Shown: positions 9,893-27,243 of the stretch, one piece after another
Numbering within the stretch: position 1 is the first letter of the stretch
Layout of the letters: the number at the start of each line of letters is the position of its first letter
Assembly (NCBI GenBank): GCA_049700655.1
Contig: JBNAUV010000003.1
Location: 1 to 34,204, forward strand
From: Minisyncoccales bacterium
GTDB lineage: Bacteria > Patescibacteriota > Minisyncoccia > Minisyncoccales > RBG-13-42-11
Direction: 5' to 3'
Length of the DNA stretch: 34,204 nucleotides
Notes under the pieces: generated by a model
What the model was told of the DNA's origin: nothing
Database searches by the model: none
What the model saw: the letters and a program-made list of their open reading frames with translations, nothing else
Position numbers and translations under genes: made by a program

Positions 9893-11287
9893 TTATTTCT
9901 TTTTGATAACTTTGATGTGAACTTCTTTTAATTGATTCTCTTCAACCCCTGAGGGCGCATCCATCATTAAATCGCGGTTGTCGCCAGTTTTAGGAAACGC
10001 GATTACTTCACGGATATTTGGTTCATTTAAAAGAATAGCTAAAAATCGATCAATGCCCGGCGCCATGCCGCCATGTGGCGGCACGCCATATTCAAAAGCC
10101 GATAATAAATGACCAAATTTTTTTCTAATATCTTCTTTTTTATGCCCCATTACTTCAAAAACTGATTCCAAAATTTTTGGTTGATGCGTTCTTAAACTAC
10201 CGCCGCCAATTTCATAACCATTTAAAACCAAATCATATTGATAAGCCAAAATTTTTTCCGGGTGTTTTTTGATTTCTTCCAGATTGTCGGTTTGCGGCCG
10301 GGTAAAAGGATGATGTACAGCGTCCCAGCGATTTTCTTCTTTTTTCCACTCAAACATCGGAAAATCAACAATAAAACAAAAAGCCAGCTCATCAGGATTA
10401 TTTTTATTATTTCTTAAATCCGGCTTATCGCTTTGATAATTTTTCATTGCTGTCGCATAAGAAATGCGCGGAAAAGGAATTTGTTTAATTCTCTTTTCGG
10501 GAAAGAATTTTTTTATTAAGGCGATGAAAAGGCCCTCCACTAATTTTAGAATATCTTCCTGTTCAATAAATGACATTTCTATGTCTAATTGAGTGAATTC
10601 GGCTTGTCGGTCGGCGCGCGGGTTTTCGTCGCGAAAACAGCGGGCAATTTGAAAATATTTTTCCAAACCAGCCACCATTAAAAGTTGTTTGTATTGTTGA
10701 GGAGATTGCGGTAAAGCGTAAAATTTTCCCGGTTGTAGGCGGGCTGGCACAATAAAATCGCGCGCGCCCTCGGGCGTGGCTTTGGTTAAAATTGGCGTTT
10801 CCACCTCAATAAACCCTTCATTGATTAAGAATTCTCGCATAAAATGAATGATTTTTTGTCGCCAAATGAGATTATTTTTCATTCTTTCTCTTCTCAAATC
10901 CAAATAACGGTATTTTAAACGTTTTTCTTCATTTATCTTATATCCATCATCATCAATATTAAAAGGCAAAGTTTTGGCTGAAGAAAAAATTTCCAAATTT
11001 TCAGCCACTAGTTCTACTTGACCGGTTTCAATTTTTGGATTTTGCATAGATCTTGGTCGCTCTTTAATTATTCCTTCAACGCTGATCACCCATTCTGGTC
11101 GTAATTTTTCAGCCAATTTAAAAAGTGGTTCATTTTCTCCTGAAAAAATCACCTGCAACAAACCGCTTCGATCTCTTAAATCAATAAAGAGAATTTGGCC
11201 ATGCGCTCGCCAATTGTTTACCCAACCGCAAACCTTTACTTTTTGATTAATATATTTAGTTGTTTCTTTAATTGGTATTCTTTCCAT
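9893..11287 (-). CDS. aspS: Aspartate--tRNA ligase, short form lacking the GAD insertion
   Basis: [37 protein letters not shown]; 464 aa. Confidence 0.96.
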
Positions 11288-11467: not shown

Positions 11468-11839
11468 TTAAGTATTTTCTAAATATTTTTTAACTTTGTC
11501 AACGATTTCTTGGGGCGTGAAGTCGGTTTTGATTAAGTAATCTTTGATGCCTAATTTTTTTGCTTTTTCGCGTTTTTCTGGATGGTCATAATTAGAAAAA
11601 GCGATCACCGGCACTGAGGCAAATTCTTTTTGGCCGCTAAACCACTCCATAAAGCCAATGCCATTCTTTTTGGGCAATAAAATGTCTAACAAAATTAAAT
11701 CCGGCTTAATTTTCGGCACCGCCTCAATCGCCTCTTCGGTAGAGCCCGCTAAAAACGCTTCAAACCCCTCTTTTCTAAACTTCTCTTGATACATCTCACC
11801 TAACATTTTTTCATCTTCAATAATTAATATTTTTTTCAT
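11468..11839 (-). CDS. Single-domain response regulator (receiver only)
   Basis: ILIIEDE, PDLILLDILLP, YLIK; no output domain. Confidence 0.93.
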   Translation of the reverse strand: MKKILIIEDEKMLGEMYQEKFRKEGFEAFLAGSTEEAIEAVPKIKPDLILLDILLPKKNGIGFMEWFSGQKEFASVPVIAFSNYDHPEKREKAKKLGIKDYLIKTDFTPQEIVDKVKKYLENT

Positions 11840-11863
11840 ATTTTTTAATTTTAATTTTTTAAT

Positions 11864-13435
11864 TTATTTTATGGGTAATTCTACAATAAATGTGCTGCCT
11901 TTGTCTTTGCCAGTTGATTCTACCCAGATTCTGCCGCCATGGGCTTCAGCAAACTTTTTAGCCACGTACAAACCAATGCCCGTGCCGCTTACATTGAGTT
12001 CTGTGCCAGCGGAAGCGCGCGAAAACATCTCAAAAAGTTTATTGATTTCTTCCTGTGTCATTCCCTCGCCTGTATCAGCTACCGCAATTTTTAATTTTAA
12101 ATTTTCAATTTTTAATTTTATGGTTATTCCGCCCTGTTGAGTGTATTTTATCGCATTATCAATCAAATTTAAAATCACCTGCCTTAATTTATCTTTGTCC
12201 GCGGTAATCGGCGGCAACTTTTCTTTTGGTTTTACTATCTTCAAATATAATCCCTTCTTCTCCGCGTTAATTTTTAATTCACTAACAATATTTTCAATTA
12301 ATTCTCCAATAGAAATTGGCTCCCATTTAAACTCTATTCGACCCGCCTCTAATCTGGAGATGTTCAATAAATCATTGACTAATTTAATCAATCTTTCATT
12401 GCTCGCATAAACATTTTCCATTGGCTTTTGCATTTTTCCCGGTAATGGCCCATAAGTGCCCTCTAAAATCATTGAAATATACCCCTTGATAGCGGTCAAG
12501 GGCGTCCTCAACTGATGGGAGGCAATAGAAATAAACTCTGACTTGGCCTTGGACAACCTTTCTACTTCTTGCCTTAAACTAATTTCTCTTAAGGTGGCTT
12601 TAATGAGGTAATAGCCAAATAAACAAAAGAGGATAAAGATAGCGCCATTTAGGATTTTAAAGCTCAATTGGGGCGCAGTGATGGTTTGGATAATCAAAAG
12701 AAGGACAATAAAACAAACCAAGATTTCAGTTAAAATGACCTTGATATCAAACAACTGTTTCTTAACAATGGCATAGGCAGTAAAAGCGAGAAAGAAGATA
12801 GAGGAATAATTTCCCAAGCGGTAATATTGTTGACTGCCAATAATAAAAGGTAAAAAACTATTGAAAAACAATATTGAACCAATAAAAATCCCTAAACCAA
12901 GAAAAAAATATTTAAATTGTTGCTTTTCAATATTTCCTGCCTTTTTATATCGTTTAAAAATATTAAAGAAAAAAAGACCCACTAACACAAGGAAAAATGT
13001 TCCAAAAAAAGGAAGAAACAATTTCCCATAAACGACATCAAATCCCCATGGCTGAATGACTATTTTTTTAACCATTAAAGATGTAAAAAGGATTAAAATT
13101 GTCAATAAAGCACCTAAAGAGAATAATGTTAAAGAAATTTTTGATGAAATTTTTCTCTCTTCAGGAAAACTCAAAGAAAAAAGGAATAAAAAAATTATCC
13201 ACCAAAGCACTGCTCCATAAGTAATTTTAGTCAAAAGTATAGCCAAGGAAGGATTAGTAAGCGGGAAAAATTCAGACAAATAAGCACTCCCTATGAATAA
13301 AGTAGTAAAAATACAAATAAAAAGGAAATAACAATTAACATTCCTTTTTCTATCTTTGAAATAAACTAAAAAACCAAGGAACAAACTCAACAAGGTAATA
13401 ATACTTACCAAAATTATCTCCCAGAGCGGAGTCAT
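11864..13435 (-). CDS. Membrane sensor histidine kinase (HisKA_7TM-like + HisKA + HATPase)
   Basis: About 280 aa multi-TM N-terminus, H-box SHQLRTP, N-box NLIDNAIKY, DTGEG, GTGIGL. Confidence 0.93.
   Translation of the reverse strand: MTPLWEIILVSIITLLSLFLGFLVYFKDRKRNVNCYFLFICIFTTLFIGSAYLSEFFPLTNPSLAILLTKITYGAVLWWIIFLFLFSLSFPEERKISSKISLTLFSLGALLTILILFTSLMVKKIVIQPWGFDVVYGKLFLPFFGTFFLVLVGLFFFNIFKRYKKAGNIEKQQFKYFFLGLGIFIGSILFFNSFLPFIIGSQQYYRLGNYSSIFFLAFTAYAIVKKQLFDIKVILTEILVCFIVLLLIIQTITAPQLSFKILNGAIFILFCLFGYYLIKATLREISLRQEVERLSKAKSEFISIASHQLRTPLTAIKGYISMILEGTYGPLPGKMQKPMENVYASNERLIKLVNDLLNISRLEAGRIEFKWEPISIGELIENIVSELKINAEKKGLYLKIVKPKEKLPPITADKDKLRQVILNLIDNAIKYTQQGGITIKLKIENLKLKIAVADTGEGMTQEEINKLFEMFSRASAGTELNVSGTGIGLYVAKKFAEAHGGRIWVESTGKDKGSTFIVELPIK
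12459..12553 (-). repeat. 95-bp direct repeat, copy 1 (H-box)
   Basis: Identical to 15032-15126; encodes [32 protein letters not shown]. Confidence 0.95.
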
Positions 13436-13439
13436 GAAA

Positions 13440-14981
13440 TTAAATTACCATTTTTGGTTTTGGCCGTGATATATCATCTTGAAATAGTCCTTGACCAGAA
13501 AGAAAAATTTTAACTTGTGGCAAAACCCTGTCCGGGCTAATCCGATAAGCATCTTGATAATCAATGTTCGTTTTTAATAAACATTGATGCACAAGGTTTT
13601 GATATTTTCTTTCTAAATCGGCTTTTTCTTGGGGTGTGGGTTTTAGGTTGGGTTTTAATTCCAAATAAACTACCAATTTTACCTCTAAATTTTTATTGGT
13701 TTGAGTGGTAAGTTTAAAACTTTTTATTTCTTTGGCTTCTGGCATATTTAACAAGGGAGATAAATTTTGAGGTGAAATTTTAGCGCCTGAAAAAATAGTA
13801 ATCATATCATCGCTTCTTCCTAGAAAGATAAGAAATGGCCATTTAAAATATCCTTTTTGCCAACCTTCTTTTTCGAGTAAAGCAGGAATAGTGTAGCCAC
13901 AACTTTTTAATTTTTTTTCCATTTCTGAAAAAGAAACAATTTTTGCTGAATCCCCTATTTTATATCTAATTATAGGTACCAGGCTGGCAGTAGCGGTAAC
14001 AAGTAGATTATCTTCTTTTTCTTCTAAAAATATACTAAGGGGATTATATTGAAATAAGGAAAAAGGGGATTTTTGATCAAGCAATATTGATCTGAATTTC
14101 TCATCTTTTTTTGCTATTTTTTGAATTATCATTGGTAAAAGGGGTGTAAATCCTATTAATCCTGTATCTCCGGCAGCAAGAAGATTAAAAATTCGCCAAC
14201 CCTCTTTTCTTTCAGGATCAATTTTGGAAAGAATATACTCTTGAAAATCTTCTGATAAGTACTCACCCCCTAATTGGAGTTTTAAATTAAGTTTTTCCCA
14301 TTTTATTCCTTGTTCATCTCCTTCATCTAAAATTTTTCTTAAAAATGACGGAATAGTACTGATAATTACTTGGGAATAATTTTCTCCTACTTCTTTTAAA
14401 ATTTTCAAAACCATTTGAGAATCACAGCCGGTAGTGACATAAGTGATGTTGTATTTTCCGAGCACTCTTCCCATTAATAAATTAATAGTATAACCAAATG
14501 ACCAAACACCTAAAGGAGTAGTGTTTATAAAAAGAGTGTTATTTGAAGGTGAACAAATATCCCACATGTAATCAAGCCAACTGAGCCATCCTTGAAAAGC
14601 AGAAAAAAATATTTTTCTCCGATACAAAAATGGAGTAGGAATTCCAGTAGAACCAGAAGAAAAACATATTCCAAAAACTTTGTCAAACTCTTTACCGGTT
14701 AAATCAGCGAGGGAATATTTATGAAGAAAATTTTTTTTAGAACTAATTGGTACTTTTTCTTGAAAATCTTTTAAATTTTGAATTGTTTTAGGGTCAACAT
14801 TGTGTTTTTTGAGAAAATCCTTGTAAGCCGGCACTTTCTCTGCTGCCTCATGGAAGGTTCTTAAAGCCATTTTTTCTCCTTTTTTCTCCCAAAAGGAAGC
14901 TGGCATTGTGGTCATAAACCAAATTGCCCTTTTTGGGTTAGACATGATAAAGTTTTGCATTAAATCTCCTATCTTGGACAT
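13440..14981 (-). CDS. Phenylacetate-CoA ligase/F390 synthetase-like adenylate-forming enzyme
   Basis: VPAYKDFL, SSGSTG P-loop, GGE, PIIRYKIGD, GRSDD. Confidence 0.85.
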   Translation of the reverse strand: MSKIGDLMQNFIMSNPKRAIWFMTTMPASFWEKKGEKMALRTFHEAAEKVPAYKDFLKKHNVDPKTIQNLKDFQEKVPISSKKNFLHKYSLADLTGKEFDKVFGICFSSGSTGIPTPFLYRRKIFFSAFQGWLSWLDYMWDICSPSNNTLFINTTPLGVWSFGYTINLLMGRVLGKYNITYVTTGCDSQMVLKILKEVGENYSQVIISTIPSFLRKILDEGDEQGIKWEKLNLKLQLGGEYLSEDFQEYILSKIDPERKEGWRIFNLLAAGDTGLIGFTPLLPMIIQKIAKKDEKFRSILLDQKSPFSLFQYNPLSIFLEEKEDNLLVTATASLVPIIRYKIGDSAKIVSFSEMEKKLKSCGYTIPALLEKEGWQKGYFKWPFLIFLGRSDDMITIFSGAKISPQNLSPLLNMPEAKEIKSFKLTTQTNKNLEVKLVVYLELKPNLKPTPQEKADLERKYQNLVHQCLLKTNIDYQDAYRISPDRVLPQVKIFLSGQGLFQDDISRPKPKMVI

Positions 14982-14985
14982 AGAT

Positions 14986-16020
14986 TTAAAAATGATTAAT
15001 TATTATACCACAATATAAAAATTCAAAGAAACCCTCTAAAATCATTGAAATATACCCCTTGATAGCGGTCAAGGGCGTCCTCAACTGATGGGAGGCAATA
15101 GAAATAAACTCTGACTTGGCCTTGGAAAGTCGATCAACTTCTTCGTACAAATGTTGAATTTCTTCACGCCTCTTTATTTCTAAAAGTACAGATTTGATTA
15201 AAAAAATACCTGCAATACTAACAAAAGATAACAAAATAATATTTATTAATTTTTCTTGCCAATTTTCAGCTAAAAATATTTTAATTAATAAAAATATCCA
15301 TATTGAAAAAGTCAATAATTCAGTAGCAATAATTTTAATATTAAGAAAATGGTACCTTATAATAACCCAAGCAACTGCAATAGTTAGAAATAAGGTATAT
15401 AATGTAATCAAATTTGTTAATTCGAATTTCGAAAATAAAACAGGTAATAATAAATTTGTTATTAAACTAAAACTTATAAAGAAAAAAAGTCCAGATATTA
15501 ATATTCGATTCAATTTTTTAATTAATATATCTTTAGCTTGTTGATATCTTTTAATAATTTTAATAAAGGCCAAAATTAAACATCCCAACAAGAAAAATGA
15601 GTATAGCCAAATTCCCCAACCAAAAATTATCTCAGAAAAATTTTCTTTTATAATAATATCTTTGACCAAAAAAGATGAAGAGGAAATAAGGATAGATATA
15701 ATAGCTAAAACTAAGCTTATTATAAATAATTGTTTATTTGGTTTATCATCTGAAGGAAAAACTTCTGTAAAAAGTAGAAGGGCCCAAACAGCGATAGTTG
15801 TGCTAATAAAAATTAATCGGTTGCACCAAAGAACAATTTCTGTATTTTTTTCAAAATTAGAAAAATAATTAACAATAATCCACGTAACAATTCCTAGTGT
15901 CATTAAAAAGAAATACTTACTTGAACGCAAACTAAAACTATGAACTAAGATTAAGATAGCTAAAAGTAAATTAAAAATAACCCCTAATAATAAAATTAAG
16001 AAAGGAAAAGAAATAGTCAT
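14986..16020 (-). CDS. Truncated membrane sensor: multi-TM domain plus H-box, no ATPase domain
   Basis: Paralogue of 11864-13435; homology ends at MILEG and is followed by 14 unrelated residues. Confidence 0.8.
15002..15012 (-). promoter_or_regulatory. Extended -10 promoter for the ligase gene
   Basis: TGTGGTATAAT 20 nt upstream of the ATG at 14981. Confidence 0.6.
15032..15126 (-). repeat. 95-bp direct repeat, copy 2
   Basis: Identical to 12459-12553 and in the same coding phase. Confidence 0.95.
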
Positions 16021-16058
16021 ATATACTATTGGGTAATTATATCATAAATATAAAAAAT

Positions 16059-16096
16059 AAAAACCCTATTCACTTAATATTTTGAATAGGGTTTTT
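16059..16096. terminator. Intrinsic terminator after the GNAT gene
   Basis: AAAAACCCTATTCA-loop-TGAATAGGGTTTTT. Confidence 0.75.
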
Positions 16097-16102
16097 GTCT
16101 TC

Positions 16103-16735
16103 TTACCCTACCACATATTGATAATATGTGGGGTTTTTTTGATAAACCGAACTAAGTTGGTCTTTGATTGGAATAATAATGGGTATTGATGGTGAACCCA
16201 TATATTCCATTACAGGTCCAATTTCTATTAGCGACCAACCCAACCATTGCAGTAATTTATAAGCATTTAAATCCATTCCGGCCACATAAAAATCAATTTT
16301 TTCAATCAATGCAAACAAATAAAGTGCCTTATAAAGACCCCACGATATTCTTTTGCCTCTGGCAGTTTTTTTAACTGCTAAACTGCCAATTTCTGCTGAT
16401 TTAGCATCAAACAACATTTTAATTAAACTTTCACTTTCTGCAAAAAACTTATTTTCCCAAACAGCCAATGTTTCAAATGGTGGTCCTGGAGTAACCCTAA
16501 CAGTTCCCATTAATTCCTCTCCATTCAGCAACGCAACAATATAAATTGATGGCTCGGGATCTGGTATAATTCCATCTGGGTAGGGCGTGGTTATATACCC
16601 TACTTCCAAATAAACATCATGTCTTAATTTTTTTGCTTCTTTAATCTGTTTTCGATCATTAATTGTCTGGAATACTATTCCATCTTTTTGATGTAATTTC
16701 ATTATTAAACTTGGTTCAATTTTTTCAATTTTCAT
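16103..16735 (-). CDS. GNAT-fold N-acyl amino acid synthase (FeeM/LuxI-like)
   Basis: LRHDVYLEVGY, GTVRV, AEIGSLAV, IGPVMEYMGSP; strong SD. Confidence 0.72.
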   Translation of the reverse strand: MKIEKIEPSLIMKLHQKDGIVFQTINDRKQIKEAKKLRHDVYLEVGYITTPYPDGIIPDPEPSIYIVALLNGEELMGTVRVTPGPPFETLAVWENKFFAESESLIKMLFDAKSAEIGSLAVKKTARGKRISWGLYKALYLFALIEKIDFYVAGMDLNAYKLLQWLGWSLIEIGPVMEYMGSPSIPIIIPIKDQLSSVYQKNPTYYQYVVG

Positions 16736-16767: not shown

Positions 16768-17557
<790 letters not shown>

Positions 17558-17576
17558 ATTAAATATGATATCACAT

Positions 17577-17753
17577 TCAAAAAATTAAGAAAATACAATA
17601 AAAACAAACTATAGATTTACAAAATATAAATTTCCGAAACTTAATAGTACTTATTAATGAGATTTTTTTATCTCTAAAATAAACTGAAATTCCTAAAAAC
17701 AGACTCATTAAAACAATAACAACAACTAAAAGTATTTCCCAAATTGAGATCAT
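17577..17753 (-). pseudogene. Relic N-terminus of a third membrane sensor (not in the ORF track)
   Basis: MISIWEILLVVVIVLMSLFLGISVYFRDKK matches MTPLWEIILVSIITLLSLFLGFLVYFKDRK of the full kinase; homology shifts frame at an A7 run. Confidence 0.8.
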
Positions 17754-17758
17754 AAAAT

Positions 17759-17895
17759 CTAAATTAATAATTTAGGCTTTGCTCTCTTTTTATCTTCTTC
17801 AAACGGTCCTTCTTTGTATAGAAATATCTTAACAATAGGTGAAGCCAATTCCGGATTTAACCTGTAGGCATCGCGATAATCAAAATTATTTTTAA
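17759..17895 (-). pseudogene. C-terminal relic of a second PaaK-like ligase
   Basis: NFDYRDAYRLNPELASPIVKIFLYKEGPFEEDKKRAKPKLLI vs NIDYQDAYRISPDRVLPQVKIFLSGQGLFQDDISRPKPKMVI. Confidence 0.85.
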
Positions 17896-18044
17896 GTGAA
17901 AAAGGGACACGTCCATTTTTGGGGACCAGGTTAAACAATGACGGCATCTTGAGGTGTTACCAAAGTATCTCATCTTGTGCAGGTTTTGTTAAAATTTTCT
18001 TGAGTAAATAATTGATTTTAAACCTTTACGCTTTTACGCTAATG

Positions 18045-19001
18045 TTATTCTTTTGATTTGGTTATATTGTAAACTTCGGGGTGTTTTTCTAGAATTTGCA
18101 AATATTTCATAAATTGGTTATACATTTTTTTCTCGTGATTAATGATGCGGTCTTGATAACTTTGCTCTATATTATCTCTAATTATTTGAATGGCTTCTTC
18201 ATGATTCTTGCCGGAACGGTCTACCCAAGCCTGATATTTATCAATTAAAGTAACAATTAAATATTTATCTAAAAGTTCAAGATTTATGGCTTCAGCGGGT
18301 AAATCGCCATTAATCATGGCTGGATCATAGCCTTCTAAAGTATGATGAGAACTGGCCACAATAATTAAATCTTGAGGTATATCTTTATCGCCATATTTTT
18401 TAAGTAATTGATATGTCCAATAATCATGTTCCCGCCATAAATCTATTAACCGGTGTTTATTTAAATCTAATTTTTCTTCAATAATCGCCTTTTTCTCTTT
18501 GTAAAAAATATGTAATGTTAAGGTCTCTAAATACCTTTTAATTTCGTCCTTATTAGAAAAATTTTCAATCTCAATTGCTTCGTCAAGAGTTAATTCTCTG
18601 ATTTTTTTATTTTTAAATTTCGGATCTTGCGGGTTAAAATACTCTGTATTAAACATTTGGTTAATAATAATTTTTCTTTGTCTTTTATTTGCTTCAACCG
18701 GACCTGATTTACCAATATCATGGAATAAACAAGTCAATTTTATTTCAGAAAGGTTAAAATTTATTTTTTCTTTTTCAATATCTTCCCATAAAATTTCAAC
18801 AATTTGTTCCATTTTAACCGCATCTTCAAAGTGGGACTCTGGCAAATTGGATAATTCAACCAAACGTTCAAAAAGTTCAGGAAATTTTTCTATTTCAAAA
18901 TCAACTTCGTGAAATTTTTTAAAGACATATTCGGTGCCGGTCCGCTCTTTTGTTTCAAATTTCGCTTCTTCTTTGTTTGTAGGTATTTTTTCGTAATTCA
19001 T
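18045..19001 (-). CDS. HD-domain protein
   Basis: H...LFHDIGK...HD...SHH...D pattern. Confidence 0.7.
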   Translation of the reverse strand: MNYEKIPTNKEEAKFETKERTGTEYVFKKFHEVDFEIEKFPELFERLVELSNLPESHFEDAVKMEQIVEILWEDIEKEKINFNLSEIKLTCLFHDIGKSGPVEANKRQRKIIINQMFNTEYFNPQDPKFKNKKIRELTLDEAIEIENFSNKDEIKRYLETLTLHIFYKEKKAIIEEKLDLNKHRLIDLWREHDYWTYQLLKKYGDKDIPQDLIIVASSHHTLEGYDPAMINGDLPAEAINLELLDKYLIVTLIDKYQAWVDRSGKNHEEAIQIIRDNIEQSYQDRIINHEKKMYNQFMKYLQILEKHPEVYNITKSKE

Positions 19002-19172
19002 AGGTTTTACTTTAATTATTTTTAATTATTTTAATTATATTTATATTATAACCATAAAACCAAAAATAAACAATAAACAAACCAAAAACAATAACCACAA
19101 TTCTCCAACTCTCAATTAGTTATTCAATTAGTTACTCAATTAGTTGCCACTAATTCAATCAACTTCAATTTC

Positions 19173-19208
19173 TGACACCAAATCAGGCGTAGGCATTTTT
19201 TGGTGTCA
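19173..19208. repeat. 36-bp palindromic element, copy 1
   Basis: TGACACCAAATCAGGCGTAGGCATTTTTTGGTGTCA. Confidence 0.92.
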
Positions 19209-19283
19209 TTATTATTTAAATGGTGGATAAAAAATAAAGTAAAAATAAAAGATAAAAAATAAATAAAAATAAAAGGTGAAAAT

Positions 19284-19313
19284 AAAAGGGCGACGCAGCG
19301 CGTCGCCTTTTTT
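19284..19313. terminator. Bidirectional intrinsic terminator
   Basis: GGCGACGC-AGC-GCGTCGCC with A and T tails. Confidence 0.8.
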
Positions 19314-19337
19314 AAACTTATTTAATTTTTCAAGATT

Positions 19338-19460
19338 TCAATCAAGAGGAGTCAGTCCCTCACATTCTAAAATAAATTCATAAATTTCGAATAATAATTT
19401 AATGTTTGCTGCAATTAGTTCATCGCTTTTTTTAAGCAAATCACGAACTTCTTTCTTCAT
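19338..19460 (-). CDS. Small 40-aa hypothetical protein (not in the ORF track)
   Basis: MKKEVRDLLKKSDELIAANIKLLFEIYEFILECEGLTPLD; GGAGGTG SD; ATGA overlap with the upstream gene; terminator downstream. Confidence 0.65.
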   Translation of the reverse strand: MKKEVRDLLKKSDELIAANIKLLFEIYEFILECEGLTPLD

Positions 19461-19723
19461 TTGTCACCTCCCCCTTCTGTTTTTTGTTTTTTGGTCAAAC
19501 CTTCTAATTCTAAAATTTCCACTATTACTTCCCGATTATCGGGTTTGACCAGTTTCAAATGGCCGCCCTCCATAATAGTTTTAGCCACCAAAAGTAGCAG
19601 TTTTACTGCCACGGTAGCTAAAGCAGGAATTTTTAAATTTAGTTCCTTCATCACCTGCTCGTACACTTCAATTTCCGCTTGGCCCAAACGTACTATTACC
19701 GTCAGCCGATCATCTTTTCCCAT
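19457..19723 (-). CDS. Putative ribbon-helix-helix DNA-binding protein
   Basis: Alternating strand RLTVIVRL followed by two helices; strong SD; own promoter. Confidence 0.55.
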   Translation of the reverse strand: MGKDDRLTVIVRLGQAEIEVYEQVMKELNLKIPALATVAVKLLLLVAKTIMEGGHLKLVKPDNREVIVEILELEGLTKKQKTEGGGDK

Positions 19724-19772
19724 TTTCCACCTCCTCTTGGTTTTTTTATTAAAGAACCTTGTTAGATCTTAA

Positions 19773-19801
19773 AGAATAGCAAATTCTACAAAATAAGTCA
19801 A
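19773..19801 (-). promoter_or_regulatory. Sigma70 promoter
   Basis: TTGACT-17 nt-TATTCT with TG extension. Confidence 0.65.
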
Positions 19802-19808
19802 TTAAAAT

Positions 19809-19840
19809 AAAAAGAGGTGGTGAGCTTTCACCGCCTCTTT
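19809..19840 (-). terminator. Terminator after the second ThiF gene
   Basis: AAAGAGGCGGUGA-loop-UCACCACCUCUUUUU. Confidence 0.75.
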
Positions 19841-19849
19841 GTCGCTTTA

Positions 19850-20686
19850 TTAAAGAGCATAACAAATCACTGGCTGCGGCGCTAAGATGACTTCAGCACC
19901 AGCGAGGATTTTAATTATTGTTTCCACCACTATGGCGGTTGTCAAATAAGTGGTGGTTCCCAGTTGCGGAAATGACAGTTTGCCACTCCTTATTTCCTCG
20001 CCATATTTTTTCAAAAACTCTTTTAACGCACTATTATCTGGAATCCCTTTAAGAGTTTTATTAATTAACATTTCATAAAATTCAAATCCATAAATTTTTT
20101 TACCCTCAAAGATTTCAATCAAAGATGGAGTTTGTGGCGTTAAAATCAAACAATAAGCTATCCAGCCGCAATTAAGCGGATGAAATTCAATCTTATCGTG
20201 TTTTCGTGCTGCTTCGCTAATCAACCACATTGCTTGATTAGGATCAGCCATATTAACAATAAAATCATTTCTTTCTACTGCCGCACTAATATCTTCTTGT
20301 CTGCGGAGGAACTGCGGATAAACCTCAGTCTCAGCCTCGATATTGATTTCCTGAATTTTTTTGGCAGTTACTTCTGCCTTGTTGAAACCAACATCAAGCT
20401 GATTAAAAACCTGACGATTCAGATTATGTACTTCCACCTTATCGCCATCCCAAAGTTCAAAATGGCAAAATCCAGTTCGGCTGGCTAAAACCGCAATTTG
20501 ACTGCCCAAACCGCAACCAACTAGTAAAACTCTTGCTTGTTTAATTTTTTCTTGTGTTTCTGAAGAAATTAATCCCCAATTTCTTTCATAAATTTCCATT
20601 CTTTTTTCCCTCCTTTTTTCTATTTGGGCAATTACCCGTGGCATAATTTCTGCCACAATTTCCGGTCTTCCTGCTCTTCTTTTCAT
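19850..20686 (-). CDS. ThiF/E1-like adenylyltransferase, second paralogue (alternative start 20599)
   Basis: YERNWG, VGCGLGS, DGDKVEVHNLNRQ, GFNKA. Confidence 0.88.
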   Translation of the reverse strand: MKRRAGRPEIVAEIMPRVIAQIEKRREKRMEIYERNWGLISSETQEKIKQARVLLVGCGLGSQIAVLASRTGFCHFELWDGDKVEVHNLNRQVFNQLDVGFNKAEVTAKKIQEINIEAETEVYPQFLRRQEDISAAVERNDFIVNMADPNQAMWLISEAARKHDKIEFHPLNCGWIAYCLILTPQTPSLIEIFEGKKIYGFEFYEMLINKTLKGIPDNSALKEFLKKYGEEIRSGKLSFPQLGTTTYLTTAIVVETIIKILAGAEVILAPQPVICYAL

Positions 20687-20750: not shown

Positions 20751-20779
20751 ATTATACTTAAAACCAATAATTTTGTCAA
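20751..20779 (-). promoter_or_regulatory. Consensus sigma70 promoter
   Basis: TTGACA-17 nt-TATAAT. Confidence 0.8.
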
Positions 20780-20794
20780 ATAGAAATTTTAGTC

Positions 20795-22102
20795 TTAAAA
20801 ATGTTTTGACAAACTATAAATGTCGCCGGCGCCCATAATGATTAAAATATTAAAATGAGAGAAATTTTTCTGTAAATAAGATAGAATTTTATTTTTCTTT
20901 AAATAAATTACATTTTCTCTGGCTATTTTTTTGACTAATTTTTGAGCGTTAACTTTGGCTTTAATTTGCGGATTTTCTCGGCCAGCCACACTATAAATAT
21001 CAGTAATAATTACCTGATCAATTGGACAATGTTGAAAAACTTTCACAAAATCATTAAATAAATAATAGGTCCGTTGATATTGATGGGGTTGAAAAACACA
21101 CCAGATTTTTTTATCAAAATATTTCTGGCGCGCCGCTTCTAAAGTTGCTTTTATTTCAGCTGGATGATGACCATAATCGTTAATGATTTTTAATTTCAAA
21201 TTTTTAATTTTTAATTCTAGCTCTTCAAAACGGCGCCAAGCGCCTCTGTATTGGCTGAGTGTATAAAAAGTGATCTTGTTGGGAATTTTTAATAATCGAG
21301 CAATAGTTAAAACCGCTAAACTATTGGCCACATTATGTTCGCCGGGAATTTTTAAAATTTTTCTTAATTTTTTACTTTCTGGTTGGCTGAGAGAATAATT
21401 TTTTATTTTAATCGGTAATTGCACAATTTGTTTTTGTAGTTGGACAATGTCTTGGTCATCTTTATTGGCCACCAAAATACCGCTAAAAGACAAACGAGAA
21501 ATAAATTGTTTAAAAGCGTTAAAATAATTTTTAAAATTTTTATAATAATCCAAATGATCAGGGTCTAACGAAGTTAAAACAATAATATCAGGTGAATAGT
21601 TTAAAAACGAAGCGAAATGCTCGTCAGCTTCAATTACCAAAAATTGGCTTTTTCCGGCTCGATAATTACTATTGCCAAATTCTTTTAATTTTGTACCAAC
21701 AATAACTGTCGGGTCTAATTTTGCTTTAGTTAATAAAAGGCCTATCATAGCGGTAACAGTGCTTTTGCCATGTGTGCCGCAAACGGCAATAGTCAAATAA
21801 TCTTGGGTTAATTCACCTAAGGCTTGAGGATAAGAAAGAATTTTTAAATTTAATTTTTGGGCAGCTTGTAATTCTGGGTTGTTGGCTTGAACGGCTGGAC
21901 TATAGACAACCAAATCTAAATTTTTATTAAGATTGCTTTTTTTATGCCTGCCAATTAAAATTTTTGCCCCTTTTTTCTTTAATAGTTCAGTAATTTCCGA
22001 GATAACCAAATCAGAACCGCTAACTTGATGGCCTTGATTTAAATAATGTTGGGCTAAAGCAGAAACGCCAATACCGCCAATACCAATGAAATGAATACGC
22101 AT
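20795..22102 (-). CDS. murC: UDP-N-acetylmuramate--L-alanine ligase
   Basis: HFIGIGGIGVS, GTHGKST, EADE, DHLDYY, DYGHHPAEI, FQPH, MGAGD. Confidence 0.96.
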   Translation of the reverse strand: MRIHFIGIGGIGVSALAQHYLNQGHQVSGSDLVISEITELLKKKGAKILIGRHKKSNLNKNLDLVVYSPAVQANNPELQAAQKLNLKILSYPQALGELTQDYLTIAVCGTHGKSTVTAMIGLLLTKAKLDPTVIVGTKLKEFGNSNYRAGKSQFLVIEADEHFASFLNYSPDIIVLTSLDPDHLDYYKNFKNYFNAFKQFISRLSFSGILVANKDDQDIVQLQKQIVQLPIKIKNYSLSQPESKKLRKILKIPGEHNVANSLAVLTIARLLKIPNKITFYTLSQYRGAWRRFEELELKIKNLKLKIINDYGHHPAEIKATLEAARQKYFDKKIWCVFQPHQYQRTYYLFNDFVKVFQHCPIDQVIITDIYSVAGRENPQIKAKVNAQKLVKKIARENVIYLKKNKILSYLQKNFSHFNILIIMGAGDIYSLSKHF

Positions 22103-23058: not shown

Positions 23059-23652
23059 TTAATCTAAATTAAAATAGCGACGCAAAAATTCCTCGTTGTC
23101 AATCTCTTTTGCTCGGATTAATAAAATATAAGGTTGAATGTTAAAAATGGCTTTAATAAATTCGATTTCATTTTCACATTCATAAGGGTAGACAAAAACA
23201 CTTTTCTGAATTTTATAAAATCCCAATTCTTTAAGTTTCTCCCGCAAAACTTCCCGAGCAAGTTTCTTTTTGTTTGGAATATCAAAAATTACAATTCTCC
23301 AAATTTTATCCCATTTTTTAGGTTTTGGGATTACTAAATCTTGAAATTTATATTTTAAAACTTTTTCTTCTCCTTTTTTAGTAATTTTAATAATAGTTTC
23401 TCCATTTTTTGTTTCTTTAAATTCTATTATTCTTTGTTTCCTCATTCTTTTTAAAGCAGCTCTTAATCTTCTTTGGTCATATTTTTTCCACTCTTCAACA
23501 AGTGGCTTCGCAGCAATTAAAACTCCAGGGGCCACCATAGCTAAAGTCAAAAAAGCTCCTCCAGCTAAAGCCAATAAAACTTTCTTAGTAATTTCTTTTG
23601 TTTGTTTTACCCTTTCTGCTTGTTTAATTCTTTTTATTTGTTTTGGTTCCAT
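23059..23652 (-). CDS. PaaX-like protein with winged-helix-like region and Cas2-like domain
   Basis: ITKKG wing; WDKIWRIVIFDIP..REVLREKLKELGFYKIQKSVFVYPY; no cas1 or array nearby. Confidence 0.8.
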   Translation of the reverse strand: MEPKQIKRIKQAERVKQTKEITKKVLLALAGGAFLTLAMVAPGVLIAAKPLVEEWKKYDQRRLRAALKRMRKQRIIEFKETKNGETIIKITKKGEEKVLKYKFQDLVIPKPKKWDKIWRIVIFDIPNKKKLAREVLREKLKELGFYKIQKSVFVYPYECENEIEFIKAIFNIQPYILLIRAKEIDNEEFLRRYFNLD

Positions 23653-24141: not shown

Positions 24142-25194
24142 ATGATCGAGGCGCTTTTATATAAAAAACTAAAGAGAAAAAAGGTTGTTTCGTCCCGAGA
24201 TAGGGTTTCTGGTGTTATGATCCAATGTCAAAATTGCGGCCATTATTGTCGAATTGCACTGGGAAAAAGAGGTATTTGCGGGGTTCGCGAAAATATTAAT
24301 GGCAAGTTATATGCCTTAAATTATGGCAAATTAGCAGCTATTAATATTGATCCTATCGAAAAAAAGCCTTTTTATCATTTTTTACCAGGCAGCCGCTCTT
24401 TATCAATTGCCACAGTGGGTTGTAATTTTGTGTGCAAAAATTGCCAAAATTTTGATATTTCTCAAGCGCCCAAGCCAAATAAACCAATTACTGGTGAAGA
24501 ATTATCGCCAGAACAGATCGTTGAAACTGCTATTAAAAATAACCTGCCCAGCATTTCTTACACTTATGTAGAACCAACCATTTTTTTAGAATATGCTTTG
24601 GAAACTATGAAATTGGCTAAAAAGGCTGGTTTAAAAAACAATTGGGTGTCTAATGGTTTTATGTCAAAAGAATCAGCGAAATTAGTTATCCCCTATTTAG
24701 ACGCTAATAATATTGATATTAAAAGTTTTGATGACAAATTTTATCAAGAAAATTGCGGCGGCCGGCTTCAACCGGTTTTAGATACAGCAAAATTAATGAA
24801 AAAATCTGGTGTTTGGGTGGAAATTACAACTTTGGTTATCCCAACCTTAAGCGATTCAAAAGAGATGTTTAGAAAAATTGCTGAATTTATTTATAACGAA
24901 TTAGGGCCTGAAACTCCTTGGCATATTTCTCAATTCTGTGGCACGATTTCTTGGAAACTTCAACATTTGCCTGATACGCCAGTTGAAACACTACAAATGG
25001 GTTATAAAATTGGCAAAGAAACTGGTCTAAAATATGTTTACACCGGCAACGTGCCAGGCTTGCGTTCTGAAGATACTTTTTGCCCAAAATGCAACACTTT
25101 GTGTATTAACCGTTTTGGTTACTCAATAAACAGATATGATAAAAATGGCCAATGTCCAAAATGCGGCACCTTTTTAAATCTTATATTAAATTAA
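24142..25194 (+). CDS. amrS: AmmeMemoRadiSam system radical SAM enzyme
   Basis: CxxCxxxC..GICGVR, DPIEKKP, CNFVCKNCQN, YTYVEP, C-terminal CPKC pairs. Confidence 0.92.
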   Translation: MIEALLYKKLKRKKVVSSRDRVSGVMIQCQNCGHYCRIALGKRGICGVRENINGKLYALNYGKLAAINIDPIEKKPFYHFLPGSRSLSIATVGCNFVCKNCQNFDISQAPKPNKPITGEELSPEQIVETAIKNNLPSISYTYVEPTIFLEYALETMKLAKKAGLKNNWVSNGFMSKESAKLVIPYLDANNIDIKSFDDKFYQENCGGRLQPVLDTAKLMKKSGVWVEITTLVIPTLSDSKEMFRKIAEFIYNELGPETPWHISQFCGTISWKLQHLPDTPVETLQMGYKIGKETGLKYVYTGNVPGLRSEDTFCPKCNTLCINRFGYSINRYDKNGQCPKCGTFLNLILN

Positions 25195-25203
25195 AAACAA
25201 ACC

Positions 25204-25239
25204 TGACCACTTATTTTGCCATGGCAAAATAATGCGTCA
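25204..25239. repeat. 36-bp palindrome with TGAC...GTCA ends
   Basis: TGACCAC-TTATTTTGCCATGGCAAAATAA-TGCGTCA. Confidence 0.75.
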
Positions 25240-25279
25240 CAATTATTCAAAAAAATAAAATAAAAAATAAACTTAAATT

Positions 25280-25897
25280 ATGATAGTTTTTGCTTGTATT
25301 TCACCTCATCCGCCCATAATTTTACCTGAGGTTGGTTCGTCGGAAGATAGGGCTCAGGTTAAAAATACAATTGAGGCGTTAGAAAAATTAGGCGAGAAAT
25401 TAAAAGAATTAAAGCCTGATAAAATAATTATTTCTGCTCCTCATCAGGACTGGGGATTTAATGTACCACTTTTCTTTTTAGCCAAAGATTTTGAACAGGA
25501 AATTGAACAACATCTCATTGGCTTAGAATCGCCTCAATTTTATTTTGAAAAAGGAAAAGAAGTTTATTTAAAAATTAAAAATTTAAAATTAAAAATTGCC
25601 CTCATCGCCAGTGGCGATTTGTCTCATTGTCTAAAGCCGGATGGTCCTTATGGATTCCATCCTGACGGTCCAAAGTTTGATCAGGAATTTATTGAGGCTC
25701 TAAAGAAAAAAGATGTTGAAAGAATTTTGAAATTAGATGAATTGTATCCCGATGCTGGCGAATGCGGCCTGAGATCTTTTTGTTTCTTTTTGGGAATTTT
25801 AGAGGCCTCTGGGATAAATTATCAACCCGAAATTTTGTCCTACGAAGGCCCTTTTGGCGTCGGCTATTTAGTGGCAAATTTTAGATTAAGTCGATGA
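25280..25897 (+). CDS. AmmeMemoRadiSam protein B (Memo/LigB-like), short form
   Basis: PHPP, SAPH, ASGDLSH, AGECG, YEGPFGVGY. Confidence 0.85.
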   Translation: MIVFACISPHPPIILPEVGSSEDRAQVKNTIEALEKLGEKLKELKPDKIIISAPHQDWGFNVPLFFLAKDFEQEIEQHLIGLESPQFYFEKGKEVYLKIKNLKLKIALIASGDLSHCLKPDGPYGFHPDGPKFDQEFIEALKKKDVERILKLDELYPDAGECGLRSFCFFLGILEASGINYQPEILSYEGPFGVGYLVANFRLSR

Positions 25898-25945
25898 GAT
25901 AAATCTCATCTTCATCTTCGTTTTCGCTACGTGAAAACTCGATAA

Positions 25946-26668
25946 ATGAACTTAATTGAAATAAAAAACGCTCAAAAAATTATCTTTGTTGGCGATACTC
26001 ATGGCGATTGGGAAGCGAGCCAAAAAGTGATTAAGGATTATTTAAAGAAAGGAAGCAAAATTGTTTTTTTGGGAGATTATGTTGATCGAGGGCCTTATTC
26101 GAAAGAAAATTTAGATTTTTTACTAAAAACCAAAGAAAAAAATCCAGATCAAATTTATTTATTACAAGGAAATCATGAAGGGTATAGAATTCTACCATTT
26201 TCTCCAGCCGAATTCTGGCAAAGTTTAAACAATATAGATTATCAAAAATATTGTTTAATTGTTGAAAAATTTCCTTTGGTGGCAATGGCCAAAGATATTA
26301 TAGCGGCTCACGGAGCCTTGCCTAATATAGAAAACTTAGAAGAGATAAATCAAATAAAAATTGGCGATGAAATGTGGCGGACTATCGCTTGGGGCGACTT
26401 TCTTGATGAGCCGGGAGAAAATTTGGGTATCGATTTTTTTACCGGTCGACCACAATTTGGCGAAGATTATTTTTTAAAACTAATGAAAAGATTTAATAAA
26501 AAAGTTTTCATTCGTTCTCACCAACCCGATGCCCCCCAATTTATGTTTAATGATCGTTGTTTAACTATTTTCACTTCTATGGCCTATAGACGCGAGCGAA
26601 CCATTGCTATTTATGACTGCAGAAAACCAATAAAAACTGCCAAAGATTTAGAGATTATTAAAATTTAA
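25946..26668 (+). CDS. Calcineurin-like metallophosphoesterase (PPP type)
   Basis: GDTHG, GDYVDRG, GNHE, HG, RSH. Confidence 0.9.
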   Translation: MNLIEIKNAQKIIFVGDTHGDWEASQKVIKDYLKKGSKIVFLGDYVDRGPYSKENLDFLLKTKEKNPDQIYLLQGNHEGYRILPFSPAEFWQSLNNIDYQKYCLIVEKFPLVAMAKDIIAAHGALPNIENLEEINQIKIGDEMWRTIAWGDFLDEPGENLGIDFFTGRPQFGEDYFLKLMKRFNKKVFIRSHQPDAPQFMFNDRCLTIFTSMAYRRERTIAIYDCRKPIKTAKDLEIIKI

Positions 26669-26679
26669 AAAATAAAAAA

Positions 26680-27243
26680 ATGAATAATTACGTTTCATTA
26701 GCCAAATTGGCGGTAGAAACTTTTATTAAAGAAAATAAAATTATTGCCCCGCCCCGCAATTTACCAAAGGAATTTTTTGAACAAAAAGCAGGGACATTTG
26801 TTACGATTGAAAAAAATGGCGAACTAAAGGGCTGCATCGGGACTTATTTACCCTTGCGACAGAATATTGCCGAAGAAATTATTTATAACGCTATTGCCGC
26901 TGCTACTGAAGATTATCGCTTTGCGCCAATTCAAAAAAATGAACTCTCCAATCTTTCTTACACTGTCTATATTCTCCATCCGCCTCAATTAATCAAAGAT
27001 TTAAAAGAGCTGAACCCTAAAAAATATGGTATTATTGTTAAAACCGCGCCTCTTAGTCAGCCTGATGGTATGGATGTGATTTTTAATGGCCATTTAGTGC
27101 CCAAAACCGGCTTGTTACTTCCAGATTTAGAAGGCGTTGAAACAGTTGAAAAACAAATAATTATTGCCTGCCAAAAAGGAGGGATTGATCCCTTGAAAGA
27201 AAAAATTTTTATTTATAAATTTACAGTAGATAAATATGAATGA
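26680..27243 (+). CDS. amrA: AMMECR1-domain protein (AmmeMemoRadiSam protein A)
   Basis: GTFVTI, LKGCIGT, DYRF, GLLLPDL. Confidence 0.9.
   Translation: MNNYVSLAKLAVETFIKENKIIAPPRNLPKEFFEQKAGTFVTIEKNGELKGCIGTYLPLRQNIAEEIIYNAIAAATEDYRFAPIQKNELSNLSYTVYILHPPQLIKDLKELNPKKYGIIVKTAPLSQPDGMDVIFNGHLVPKTGLLLPDLEGVETVEKQIIIACQKGGIDPLKEKIFIYKFTVDKYE

Follow-up and report, generated by a model that had tools for sequence, protein, structure and literature searches.

Among the described systems closest to the locus reported here, agr combines a variable block (agrB, agrD, and the sensor half of agrC) with a conserved kinase core and regulator, and signal and receptor change together, as set out in the portion of the source consulted (PMC10482373). 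In this study, we analyzed a Minisyncoccales contig of 34,204 bp (C3, JBNAUV010000003.1), the whole of which is hereafter called the window; it belongs to a genome bin of 538,623 bp in 30 contigs. The window encodes a 523-aa seven-transmembrane (7TM) histidine kinase, termed HKA, and a second 7TM sensor, termed sensor B. These two genes share a perfect 95-bp direct repeat at the H-box, and between its copies lie the sensor half of HKA (sensor A) and a ligase-like gene, LIG. Our preferred reading, at a rough probability of 0.55, is that the repeat is a scar left when cassettes were turned over at a two-component locus that is hypervariable and has the form MurC-variable block-histidine kinase (HK)-response regulator (RR)-AspRS, in which sensor B was orphaned.

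The likeness to agr, as far as that portion of the source allows a comparison, is that in the window's family a variable block of enzymes and a 7TM domain stands beside a kinase core and regulator that are conserved at a syntenic site, with homology resuming at the sensor/linker. By contrast, the window holds no AgrB/AgrD pathway or LytTR regulator, its Pfam content being ThiF, FeeM, HD, and a regulator that consists of a receiver only, along with a ligase that falls in no family. The enzymes of the family are a PaaK-like ligase, ThiF, a FeeM-like acyltransferase, methyltransferases, and others, and the kinase is of the HisKA type. To our knowledge, agr alleles replace one another, and we know of no stacking with an orphan sensor.

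Two further systems offer partial parallels, both described here from excerpts of the respective papers. Orphan Rhs fragments fuse to the main rhs gene by recombination (PMC3967940), and illegitimate recombination facilitated by homology was proposed for effector-immunity displacement arrays of type VI secretion systems (T6SS) (PMC5361080). What the window appears to share with Rhs, contact-dependent inhibition (CDI), and T6SS loci, within the limits of these excerpts, is the division of genes into constant and variable parts and a displaced fragment that lies beside the main gene with a short homology, in this case sensor B and its 95-bp handle. However, the polarity is mirrored, with the constant part at the 3' end and orphans piling up at the 5' end; the cargo consists of a sensor domain and enzymes rather than toxin and immunity genes; and for the window a fusion is a prediction.

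Domain shuffling of histidine kinases after duplication has also been reported, in that kinase trees disagree with the upstream sensory domains, and the mechanism of the expansions was called unclear in the part of that study consulted (Alm, Huang and Arkin, 2006, PMC1630713). A discordance between sensor and kinase is likewise found in the window's family. Whereas that earlier work, as excerpted, compared architectures across genomes, the window may represent an intermediate at base resolution at a syntenic locus. For histidine kinases, the shuffling of sensor domains is inferred from comparisons, and the steps by which it proceeds are seldom observed at the molecular level; in the window, the bases at both junctions can still be read, one junction being apparently homologous at the start of the H-box and the other apparently illegitimate after the first helix of the dimerization and histidine phosphotransfer (DHp) domain. 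Our searches of the literature on Patescibacteria histidine kinases and quorum sensing and on HisKA_7TM returned no description of this locus type. The signalling of ultra-small host-dependent bacteria is almost unknown, and if the enzymes of the variable block make ligands, the locus would represent a small-molecule, agr-like polymorphism of signal and receptor in such bacteria.

The 95-bp Repeat Shared by HKA and Sensor B

Base-by-base comparison and alignment showed that positions 12459-12553 (copy A) and 15032-15126 (copy B) are identical at 95 of 95 nt, forming a direct repeat with a spacing of 2573 bp. A repeat search returned one two-copy family, 12459-12570 / 15032-15143 (112 nt at 95%), and blastn detected no further copies in the 538,623-bp genome. 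Both copies are on the minus strand inside open reading frames (ORFs), copy A covering the H-box and first DHp helix of HKA (codons 295-326) and copy B being the corresponding A-type H-box on sensor B. Because both begin at codon position 1 (13435-12553 = 882 = 3x294; 16020-15126 = 894 = 3x298), a deletion between them stays in frame, and the predicted product has 298+229 = 527 aa.

HKA (11864..13435, minus strand) is intact and consists of sensor A, DHp, and a catalytic and ATP-binding (CA) domain, with matches to HisKA_7TM (PF16927, E 8.7e-9), HisKA (PF00512, positions 1-66 of 66), and HATPase_c (PF02518, E 1.2e-28). Sensor B (14986..16020, minus strand; 344 aa) also matches HisKA_7TM (E 2.1e-10) but covers positions 1-29 of 66 only in the HisKA profile, i.e., half an H-box, and the Pfam profile scan found no HATPase_c match in it; it is therefore a fragment and not a kinase. 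Outside the repeat, sensors A and B share 24% identity in aligned columns, and their best BLASTP segment, in which the repeat is included, reaches 38%. Following the repeat, sensor B continues for 14 non-kinase residues to a stop codon, and then comes the ATG of LIG.

The two edges of the repeat differ in character. To the left, the two genes are still homologous but diverged, differing at 5 of the 15 bases that precede the repeat; to the right, copy A runs on into the kinase, and copy B passes through 50 nt of unrelated AT-rich DNA to the LIG start codon. The left edge thus resembles a point of homologous exchange, and the right edge resembles an illegitimate junction, judging from the bases on either side. 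The 50-nt junction (14982..15031, minus strand) contains the 14-aa tail of sensor B with its stop and the promoter-like TGGTATAAT before the LIG start. This promoter-like element was read by eye; the scanner lists a 9/12 site at 15026-14999 (weak consensus), and promoter-like sites in the region number 46 vs 43.5 in shuffles, i.e., they are not enriched. An earlier note on this DNA, made from the sequence without database searches, had proposed a perfect in-frame repeat whose H-box DNA is identical down to synonymous sites between otherwise diverged sensors, an end to the kinase likeness of sensor B exactly where the repeat ends, and a recombination that would remove 2573 bp in frame with the loss of LIG and sensor A, all of which agree with our results. 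Its description of the 14-aa tail as the LIG promoter is upheld as to a non-kinase tail right before LIG, but the promoter amounts to a consensus resemblance.

Conservation of the protein does not account for the identity of the two copies, as a kinase in the related genome G031 encodes the same 32 residues while only 77/95 bases and 14/31 codons are identical. The best of 6 full-length H-box matches scored reached 81/95 bases. From these comparisons, both chance and protein constraint can be excluded as the cause, and the identity must be recent. The repeat peptide is of the A/resident type (LSKAKSEF..., identical in G031), and the other members of the sensor-B clade have LDNAKSEF and longer linkers. 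GC content at third codon positions (GC3) is 0.61 in the repeat, compared with 0.40 for the regulator, 0.37 for the kinase half, 0.30 for sensor A, and 0.17 for sensor B. On its peptide and base composition, the 95 bp is best identified as a resident-type H-box.

A hairpin within the repeat was considered and dropped. A 7-bp stem (CCCTTGA...TCAAGGG) was flagged in both copies, at 12483-12502 and 15056-15075, but its frequency at H-boxes is about that of chance. The codons for PLTAIKG are inherently near-palindromic, and stems of at least 7 bp occur at 6/86 H-box sites, a count that comes down to 4 distinct loci because it includes the two copies in the window and a pair of loci from genome G015; the chance rate of such stems is about one in ten by a rough hand estimate.

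The repeat might also reflect the assembly rather than the genome, if a mis-resolved path through a 95-bp repeat common to co-existing strains had produced a stacking that exists in no single genome. One strain might, for example, carry a sensor B-kinase fusion and another a different orphan upstream of LIG-HKA. The contig comes from a 30-contig metagenome bin with N runs in some scaffolds, 95 bp is below the length that some assembler k-mers can resolve, and the hypervariability of the locus among close relatives makes a mixture of strains plausible. However, the junction from the H-box end to the region upstream of LIG would have to occur in real reads for the graph edge to exist, and, if this edge is real, the association of an H-box fragment with LIG survives even with sensor B wrongly attached. 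In addition, the assembled order would be the sole linear path passing once through each of the four edges, and the alternative path would leave a 2.6-kb circle without a replication gene. We thus regard an assembly artefact as very unlikely.

Module B and the Resident Two-Component System

Upstream of sensor B, and like it on the minus strand, are a gene for a FeeM-like N-acyl amino acid synthase with a GNAT fold (16103..16735; PF21926, E 7e-9) and one for an E1-like adenylyltransferase, ThiF1 (16793..17557; PF00899, E 8e-39), which together we refer to as module B. The nearest context for sensor B is a ThiF-FeeM-HK row with a full 560-aa kinase in a Moranbacteria contig (L036), in which ThiF is 55% identical to ThiF1, FeeM is 41% identical to its window counterpart, and the sensor of the kinase is 41% identical to sensor B. 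Full-length relatives of sensor B are about 520-560 aa long at 40-47% identity, and the FeeM-like gene is rare, being present in 1/400 other class genomes. Based on gene content and order, sensor B is identified as a probable displaced remnant of the ThiF-FeeM-HK module that is intact in L036. The linker of sensor B, by contrast, has the length and type found in resident/A-clade kinases (P0048, P0061, P0060, and that of G015), unlike its own clade, and its DNA differs from that of HKA at 5 of the 15 bases mentioned above. The combination of a resident-type linker with DNA unlike that of HKA implies that sensor B had been joined to such a linker before the 95-bp identity arose. As a separate observation, the database protein P0002 (351 aa, 47% identical to sensor B) likewise ends inside the H-box with an unrelated tail, which could reflect either another such truncation or a frameshift; a scan of genome contigs with an alignment of B-type sensors did not return its contig.

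LIG (13440..14981, minus strand), located 4 nt upstream of HKA, encodes a distant PaaK-like adenylate-forming ligase. It matches TIGR02155 (PaaK) at E 5e-12, which is below the cut-off, and phenylacetate-CoA ligase (PDB 4r1l) at E 2e-6, and it has no Pfam family match. Members of the LIG family occur in 34/400 other class genomes, often beside ThiF and 7TM HKs. One such row in G031 (L005, contig C6, 5410-14391) consists, in order, of a TrmB regulator, an aromatic amino acid lyase, a LIG homologue, a ThiF-domain protein, a protein with a short nitroreductase match, a methyltransferase, a 7TM kinase that is 51% identical to HKA residues 146-523, and a regulator, which suggests an aryl-acid-derived product linked to the kinase.

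A trace of another LIG-kinase junction lies beyond module B on the minus strand. A 58-aa ORF at 17577..17753 (the HK' stub) resembles the N-terminus of HKA over its first 30 residues (60% over 30 aa), and the last 45 residues of a 62-aa ORF at 17759..17947 (the LIG' remnant) are 53% identical to LIG aa 469-513. Their spacing is close, the same as that of LIG and HKA, and positions 17663-17895 share 66.7% nucleotide identity over 234 nt with the LIG-HKA junction. At only 66.7%, the stub represents an older layer. No other kinase or RR remnants were detected between 11 and 21 kb by self tblastx or blastn.

Relatives in the same family of Patescibacteria, the lineage under which database relatives of the window's 7TM kinases are annotated, indicate which of these elements are fixed. 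We compared 22 AspRS loci that had flanks of only 1.5 kb, of which 8 were extended. The HK and/or the RR adjoins AspRS in 17/22 family loci, and DacA and MraY follow AspRS in most. The order radical-SAM (rSAM)-LigT-MurC-variable region of 1.4-4 kb-HK-RR-AspRS-DacA-MraY is present in 4/8 extended loci (G008, G012, G021, and G023), and rSAM-LigT-MurC is syntenic in 5/8 (L145-L148 and L150). In the window, all genes of interest are likewise on the minus strand, from MurC at the 5' side (20795..22102; Mur ligase domains), the conserved upstream flank, to AspRS at the 3' side (9893..11287), the conserved downstream flank. The receiver-only RR (11468..11839, minus strand; PF00072, E 3.5e-20) is 52-65% identical to RRs at the same place in relatives. 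From this synteny, HKA and the RR are identified as partners in the resident two-component system of this family. Two of the extended loci show irregularities of their own. L150 (G016, contig C23, 8509-10762) has MurC-RR-AspRS with no kinase gene between, so its resident kinase seems to be lost, and in L147 (G023, contig C1, 3313-4039) the match of the resident kinase to HKA is split into two pieces that overlap, a pattern suggestive of a frameshift within the ATPase half.

The genes directly upstream of the HK differ between relatives: a shikimate-DH-like gene and an AMP-binding ligase in G008; polyprenyl synthase, UPF0047, NUDIX, and an ORF of unknown function in G012; UPF0047 and such an unknown ORF in G015 (these ORFs being 326-337 aa and Pfam-less); and a methyltransferase in G021 and G023, whose kinases have an extra stretch between membrane domain and H-box that, read by eye, is GAF-like. 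In the window, the places where relatives have other genes, between MurC and HK, are taken upstream of the stub by an HD-domain protein (18045-19001), an 88-aa ORF (19457-19723), and ThiF2 (19850-20686), all on the minus strand and the first and last identified by Pfam. These three (18045..20686) are possibly the rest of the oldest cassette. The contrast is sharpest within a single genus: G008 and G021 have flanks that are 88-95% identical in amino acids, yet their enzyme-plus-sensor segments of about 3.8 kb vs 2.5 kb are non-homologous, homology restarting at about residue 270 of the G008 kinase, and the kinase halves are 81.6% and the sensors 27.3% identical. These comparisons support an exchange of enzyme-plus-sensor cassettes on conserved kinase cores in the family, with likely breakpoints at the sensor/linker/H-box boundary.

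Sensor and Kinase Histories and the Origin of the Repeat

Quick maximum-likelihood trees (LG+G4, with Shimodaira-Hasegawa-like approximate likelihood ratio test [SH-aLRT] support only) were built for 85 kinase halves and 86 sensor halves, the rows being 69 kinases taken from loci, 15 proteins from databases, and both genes of the window. The kinase half of HKA falls in a clade of 8 rows (support 98) within a clade of 27 (support 99), and its sensor half in a clade of 13 rows (support 99) that holds largely the same proteins as in the kinase tree. When family residents were added, those of G015 and G012 entered the HKA sensor clade, and all residents entered the kinase clade. Sensor B belongs to a clade of 11 rows (support 99) with L036 and the database proteins P0003-P0013, and the kinases of 7/10 of its clade partners lie in another clade. 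P0011-13 carry B-clade sensors on kinases of HKA's large clade, so chimeras of B-type sensor and A-type kinase occur naturally. The sensors of LIG-linked kinases are nearly all in one clade (support 98) and their kinase halves are scattered in the kinase tree. In seven pairs, the kinases are at least 80% identical and the sensors no more than 50%, and the change points fall at HKA residues 207-292; the left edge of the window repeat is at HKA residue 295. The two trees show that the sensor and kinase halves have discordant histories, as far as quick trees can do so. In approximately unbiased (AU) tests, kinase monophyly is rejected for the 10 B-type-sensor rows (p 4e-6) and for the 20 LIG-linked-sensor rows (p 1e-119).

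Under the reading that the repeat is a scar of cassette turnover, the kinase core (DHp and ATPase) and the receiver-only regulator would stay fixed, and the upstream small-molecule enzymes and the 7TM sensor would be replaced together, with the right-hand exchange point at the end of the last membrane helix, in the linker, or in the H-box. Three generations would then be stacked from 5' to 3': the ligase/HK stub as the oldest, ThiF-FeeM-sensor B as the orphaned, and LIG-sensor A as the current one, fused to the kinase. Sensor B would already have been joined to a linker of the resident type, and it would end in the 95 bp of the resident H-box, beyond which a single illegitimate junction leads to the region upstream of LIG. 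The insert flanked by the repeat could have originated by single-crossover integration of a circle with one H-box copy, by tandem duplication and subsequent replacement of the upstream copy, or by conversion followed by deletion. The first of these resembles Campbell-type integration, in that the row of tail, LIG, and sensor A has the target on either side as a perfect direct repeat and one repeat end abuts non-homologous DNA, but no circle, replicon, or integrase is known here. Integration as a circle had been suggested in the earlier note; the flanking repeat of the target fits that suggestion, although tandem duplication, or conversion and deletion, would give the same sequence. That note had overlooked that HKA and the RR form a resident system, that sensor B is a ThiF-FeeM-HK remnant, and that an older ligase/HK junction remnant lies at 17577-17947, three points that we put forward on the comparisons above.

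An insertion of LIG and sensor A into an intact B-type kinase, with the present kinase half originally that of sensor B, was rated less likely. The two halves of HKA share largely the same relatives, 7/10 of the B-type sensors have kinases in another clade, and the GC3 of sensor A is nearer to that of the kinase; P0011-13, with B-clade sensors in the HKA kinase clade, fit such an insertion.

Among 80 related loci compared for similar scars, several have orphaned or duplicated parts. L100 (2810-7470) contains a 315-aa 7TM sensor that ends just before the H-box; after it come an oxidoreductase-like gene, a UbiA prenyltransferase, and one full kinase, with no repeat at the orphan sensor. In L084 (5962-9002), a full kinase precedes a 338-aa 7TM-only ORF, behind which lies the regulator. 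In L054 (7352-9877), the last 128 nt of a 7TM kinase recur 2.4 kb downstream at 90% identity, and these copies flank a TPR-like ORF and a MvdD/RimK-type ATP-grasp gene. Tandem full-length 7TM kinases of 723 aa (with GAF) and 544 aa are found in L070 (1586-5454), their kinase halves being 74.7% identical over 735 nt with perfect patches of 124, 74, and 29 nt, which look like patchy gene conversion between neighbours; L111 is another tandem kinase pair.

Such pairs lend some credit to plain decay, in which tandem paralogues (ThiF-FeeM-HK_B and LIG-HK_A) would have undergone ectopic gene conversion over part of their kinase halves and later a deletion of the rest of HK_B up to the region upstream of LIG, so that sensor B would be a young pseudogene without a role and the repeat incidental. 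Tandem 7TM kinases with patchy perfect identity are known from L070, with L111 as a further pair; a deletion that ended inside a converted tract would leave identity up to the junction; and the locus has other deletion remnants in a genome as small as 0.54 Mb. However, this route needs two independent events with coinciding traces, and it leaves unexplained the resident-type linker of sensor B at 5/15 bases from that of HKA. The 344-codon frame of sensor B, moreover, is still open in a stretch of 24% GC, so any decay must be very recent. We therefore hold plain decay to be unlikely.

The genome encodes RecA, ComEC, and DprA, which makes it feasible both for the two copies to recombine and for foreign cassettes to be taken up. 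By removing 2573 bp (LIG and sensor A), RecA could create an in-frame 527-aa sensor B-kinase, much as an orphan Rhs toxin fragment is fused to the main rhs gene. The deletion appears feasible from the gene content and, with its product, constitutes a testable prediction. The linker of the predicted fusion would be seven residues (one heptad) longer than that of HKA and equal to that of intact relatives. A further alternative is a programmed, reversible receptor switch in which the 2573-bp LIG-sensor A unit is regularly excised and re-integrated at the H-box repeat, in the manner of phase variation. The perfect, in-frame copies only 2.5 kb apart, a fusion linker of a length seen in intact relatives, and the presence of RecA speak for it. 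On the other hand, the 37 window ORFs scanned had no match to recombinase, integrase, or transposase families (the scan left out 5/39 ORFs of at least 90 aa, which lie beyond 31.8 kb, and some antisense ORFs), and no dedicated recombinase by the repeats was among them, a difference from site-specific switches such as shufflons, invertases, and integrons. A circle without replication or maintenance functions would make the deletion effectively one-way, no second configuration was seen in the protein collection or metagenome contigs searched, and comparable loci have degraded repeats (none in L100, 90% in L054). A programmed switch is thus extremely improbable. Of the sensor-domain swap that the earlier note had envisaged, exchange at this boundary on an evolutionary scale and the feasibility of the deletion remain, but not programmed or reversible switching. 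As for the alternative sensor-kinase fusions that it had proposed to look for among relatives, these do carry differing enzyme-sensor blocks on conserved cores, but none showed a sensor-B/kinase fusion or this cassette pair.

Several points weigh against the reading of the repeat as a scar of cassette turnover. The trees come from quick searches, their loci were picked by likeness to B-type sensors, and the groups in the AU tests were named after both trees had been seen. Sensor A lies outside the sensor clade of nearly all other LIG-linked kinases, which makes it less likely that sensor and enzyme move as one in every case. The stub stems from a much older event that may have nothing to do with the repeat, and the order of events is a narrative, as we infer at least three topologically different routes to the same sequence. 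The presence of the structure in single molecules is taken from the assembly; a search for sequencing runs with positions 11800-16100 listed none, a result that does not bear on whether such runs exist. Among the sequences searched, there was no relative with this cassette pair, no deletion product, and no circle. The 44-nt repeat core had no exact match in metagenome contigs, and no sensor-B/kinase fusion was present among the 189-602-aa proteins scored from a collection of 5.8 billion proteins, in which the best non-self match was 47%. Related to these searches, one for HKA relatives in metagenome contigs returned only 9 distant kinases (23-35% identity), which were not used, and the genome studied (G000) is the sole one of its genus in the comparison.

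The linkage of the enzymes to the sensors suggests that they may make or modify the ligand of the adjacent sensor. A more far-reaching proposal, which we consider distinctly doubtful, is that in some Patescibacteria displaced sensor-plus-enzyme cassettes are kept as orphans with H-box handles upstream of one resident kinase core, and that RecA deletion, or uptake and re-integration, re-wires which self- or neighbour-made small molecule is sensed. Such a locus would be a receptor-switching archive that joins agr-like co-variation with Rhs-like orphan storage.

Other Features of the Window

The variable locus is embedded in housekeeping genes, with MraY, DacA, FtsW, MurG, MurD, and GluRS in one flank and LigT, a radical-SAM/Memo/AMMECR1 set, Fmt, and EF-P in the other. 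Two perfect 12/12 sigma-70 consensus sites (TTGACA-17-TATAAT) are present on the minus strand, one at 20751-20779 upstream of ThiF2 and the other at 16869-16897 within the terminal part of ThiF1, ahead of the FeeM-like gene and upstream of it. Near the variable locus, positions 23059-23652 encode a protein of 197 aa in which a PaaX central Cas2-like domain is recognized (E 5e-22). Farther on, at 24142-27243, radical-SAM, LigB/Memo-like, metallophosphoesterase, and AMMECR1 genes stand in a row, which we take to be an AmmeMemoRadiSam-type set, and the radical-SAM gene of this row adjoins LigT-MurC in relatives too.

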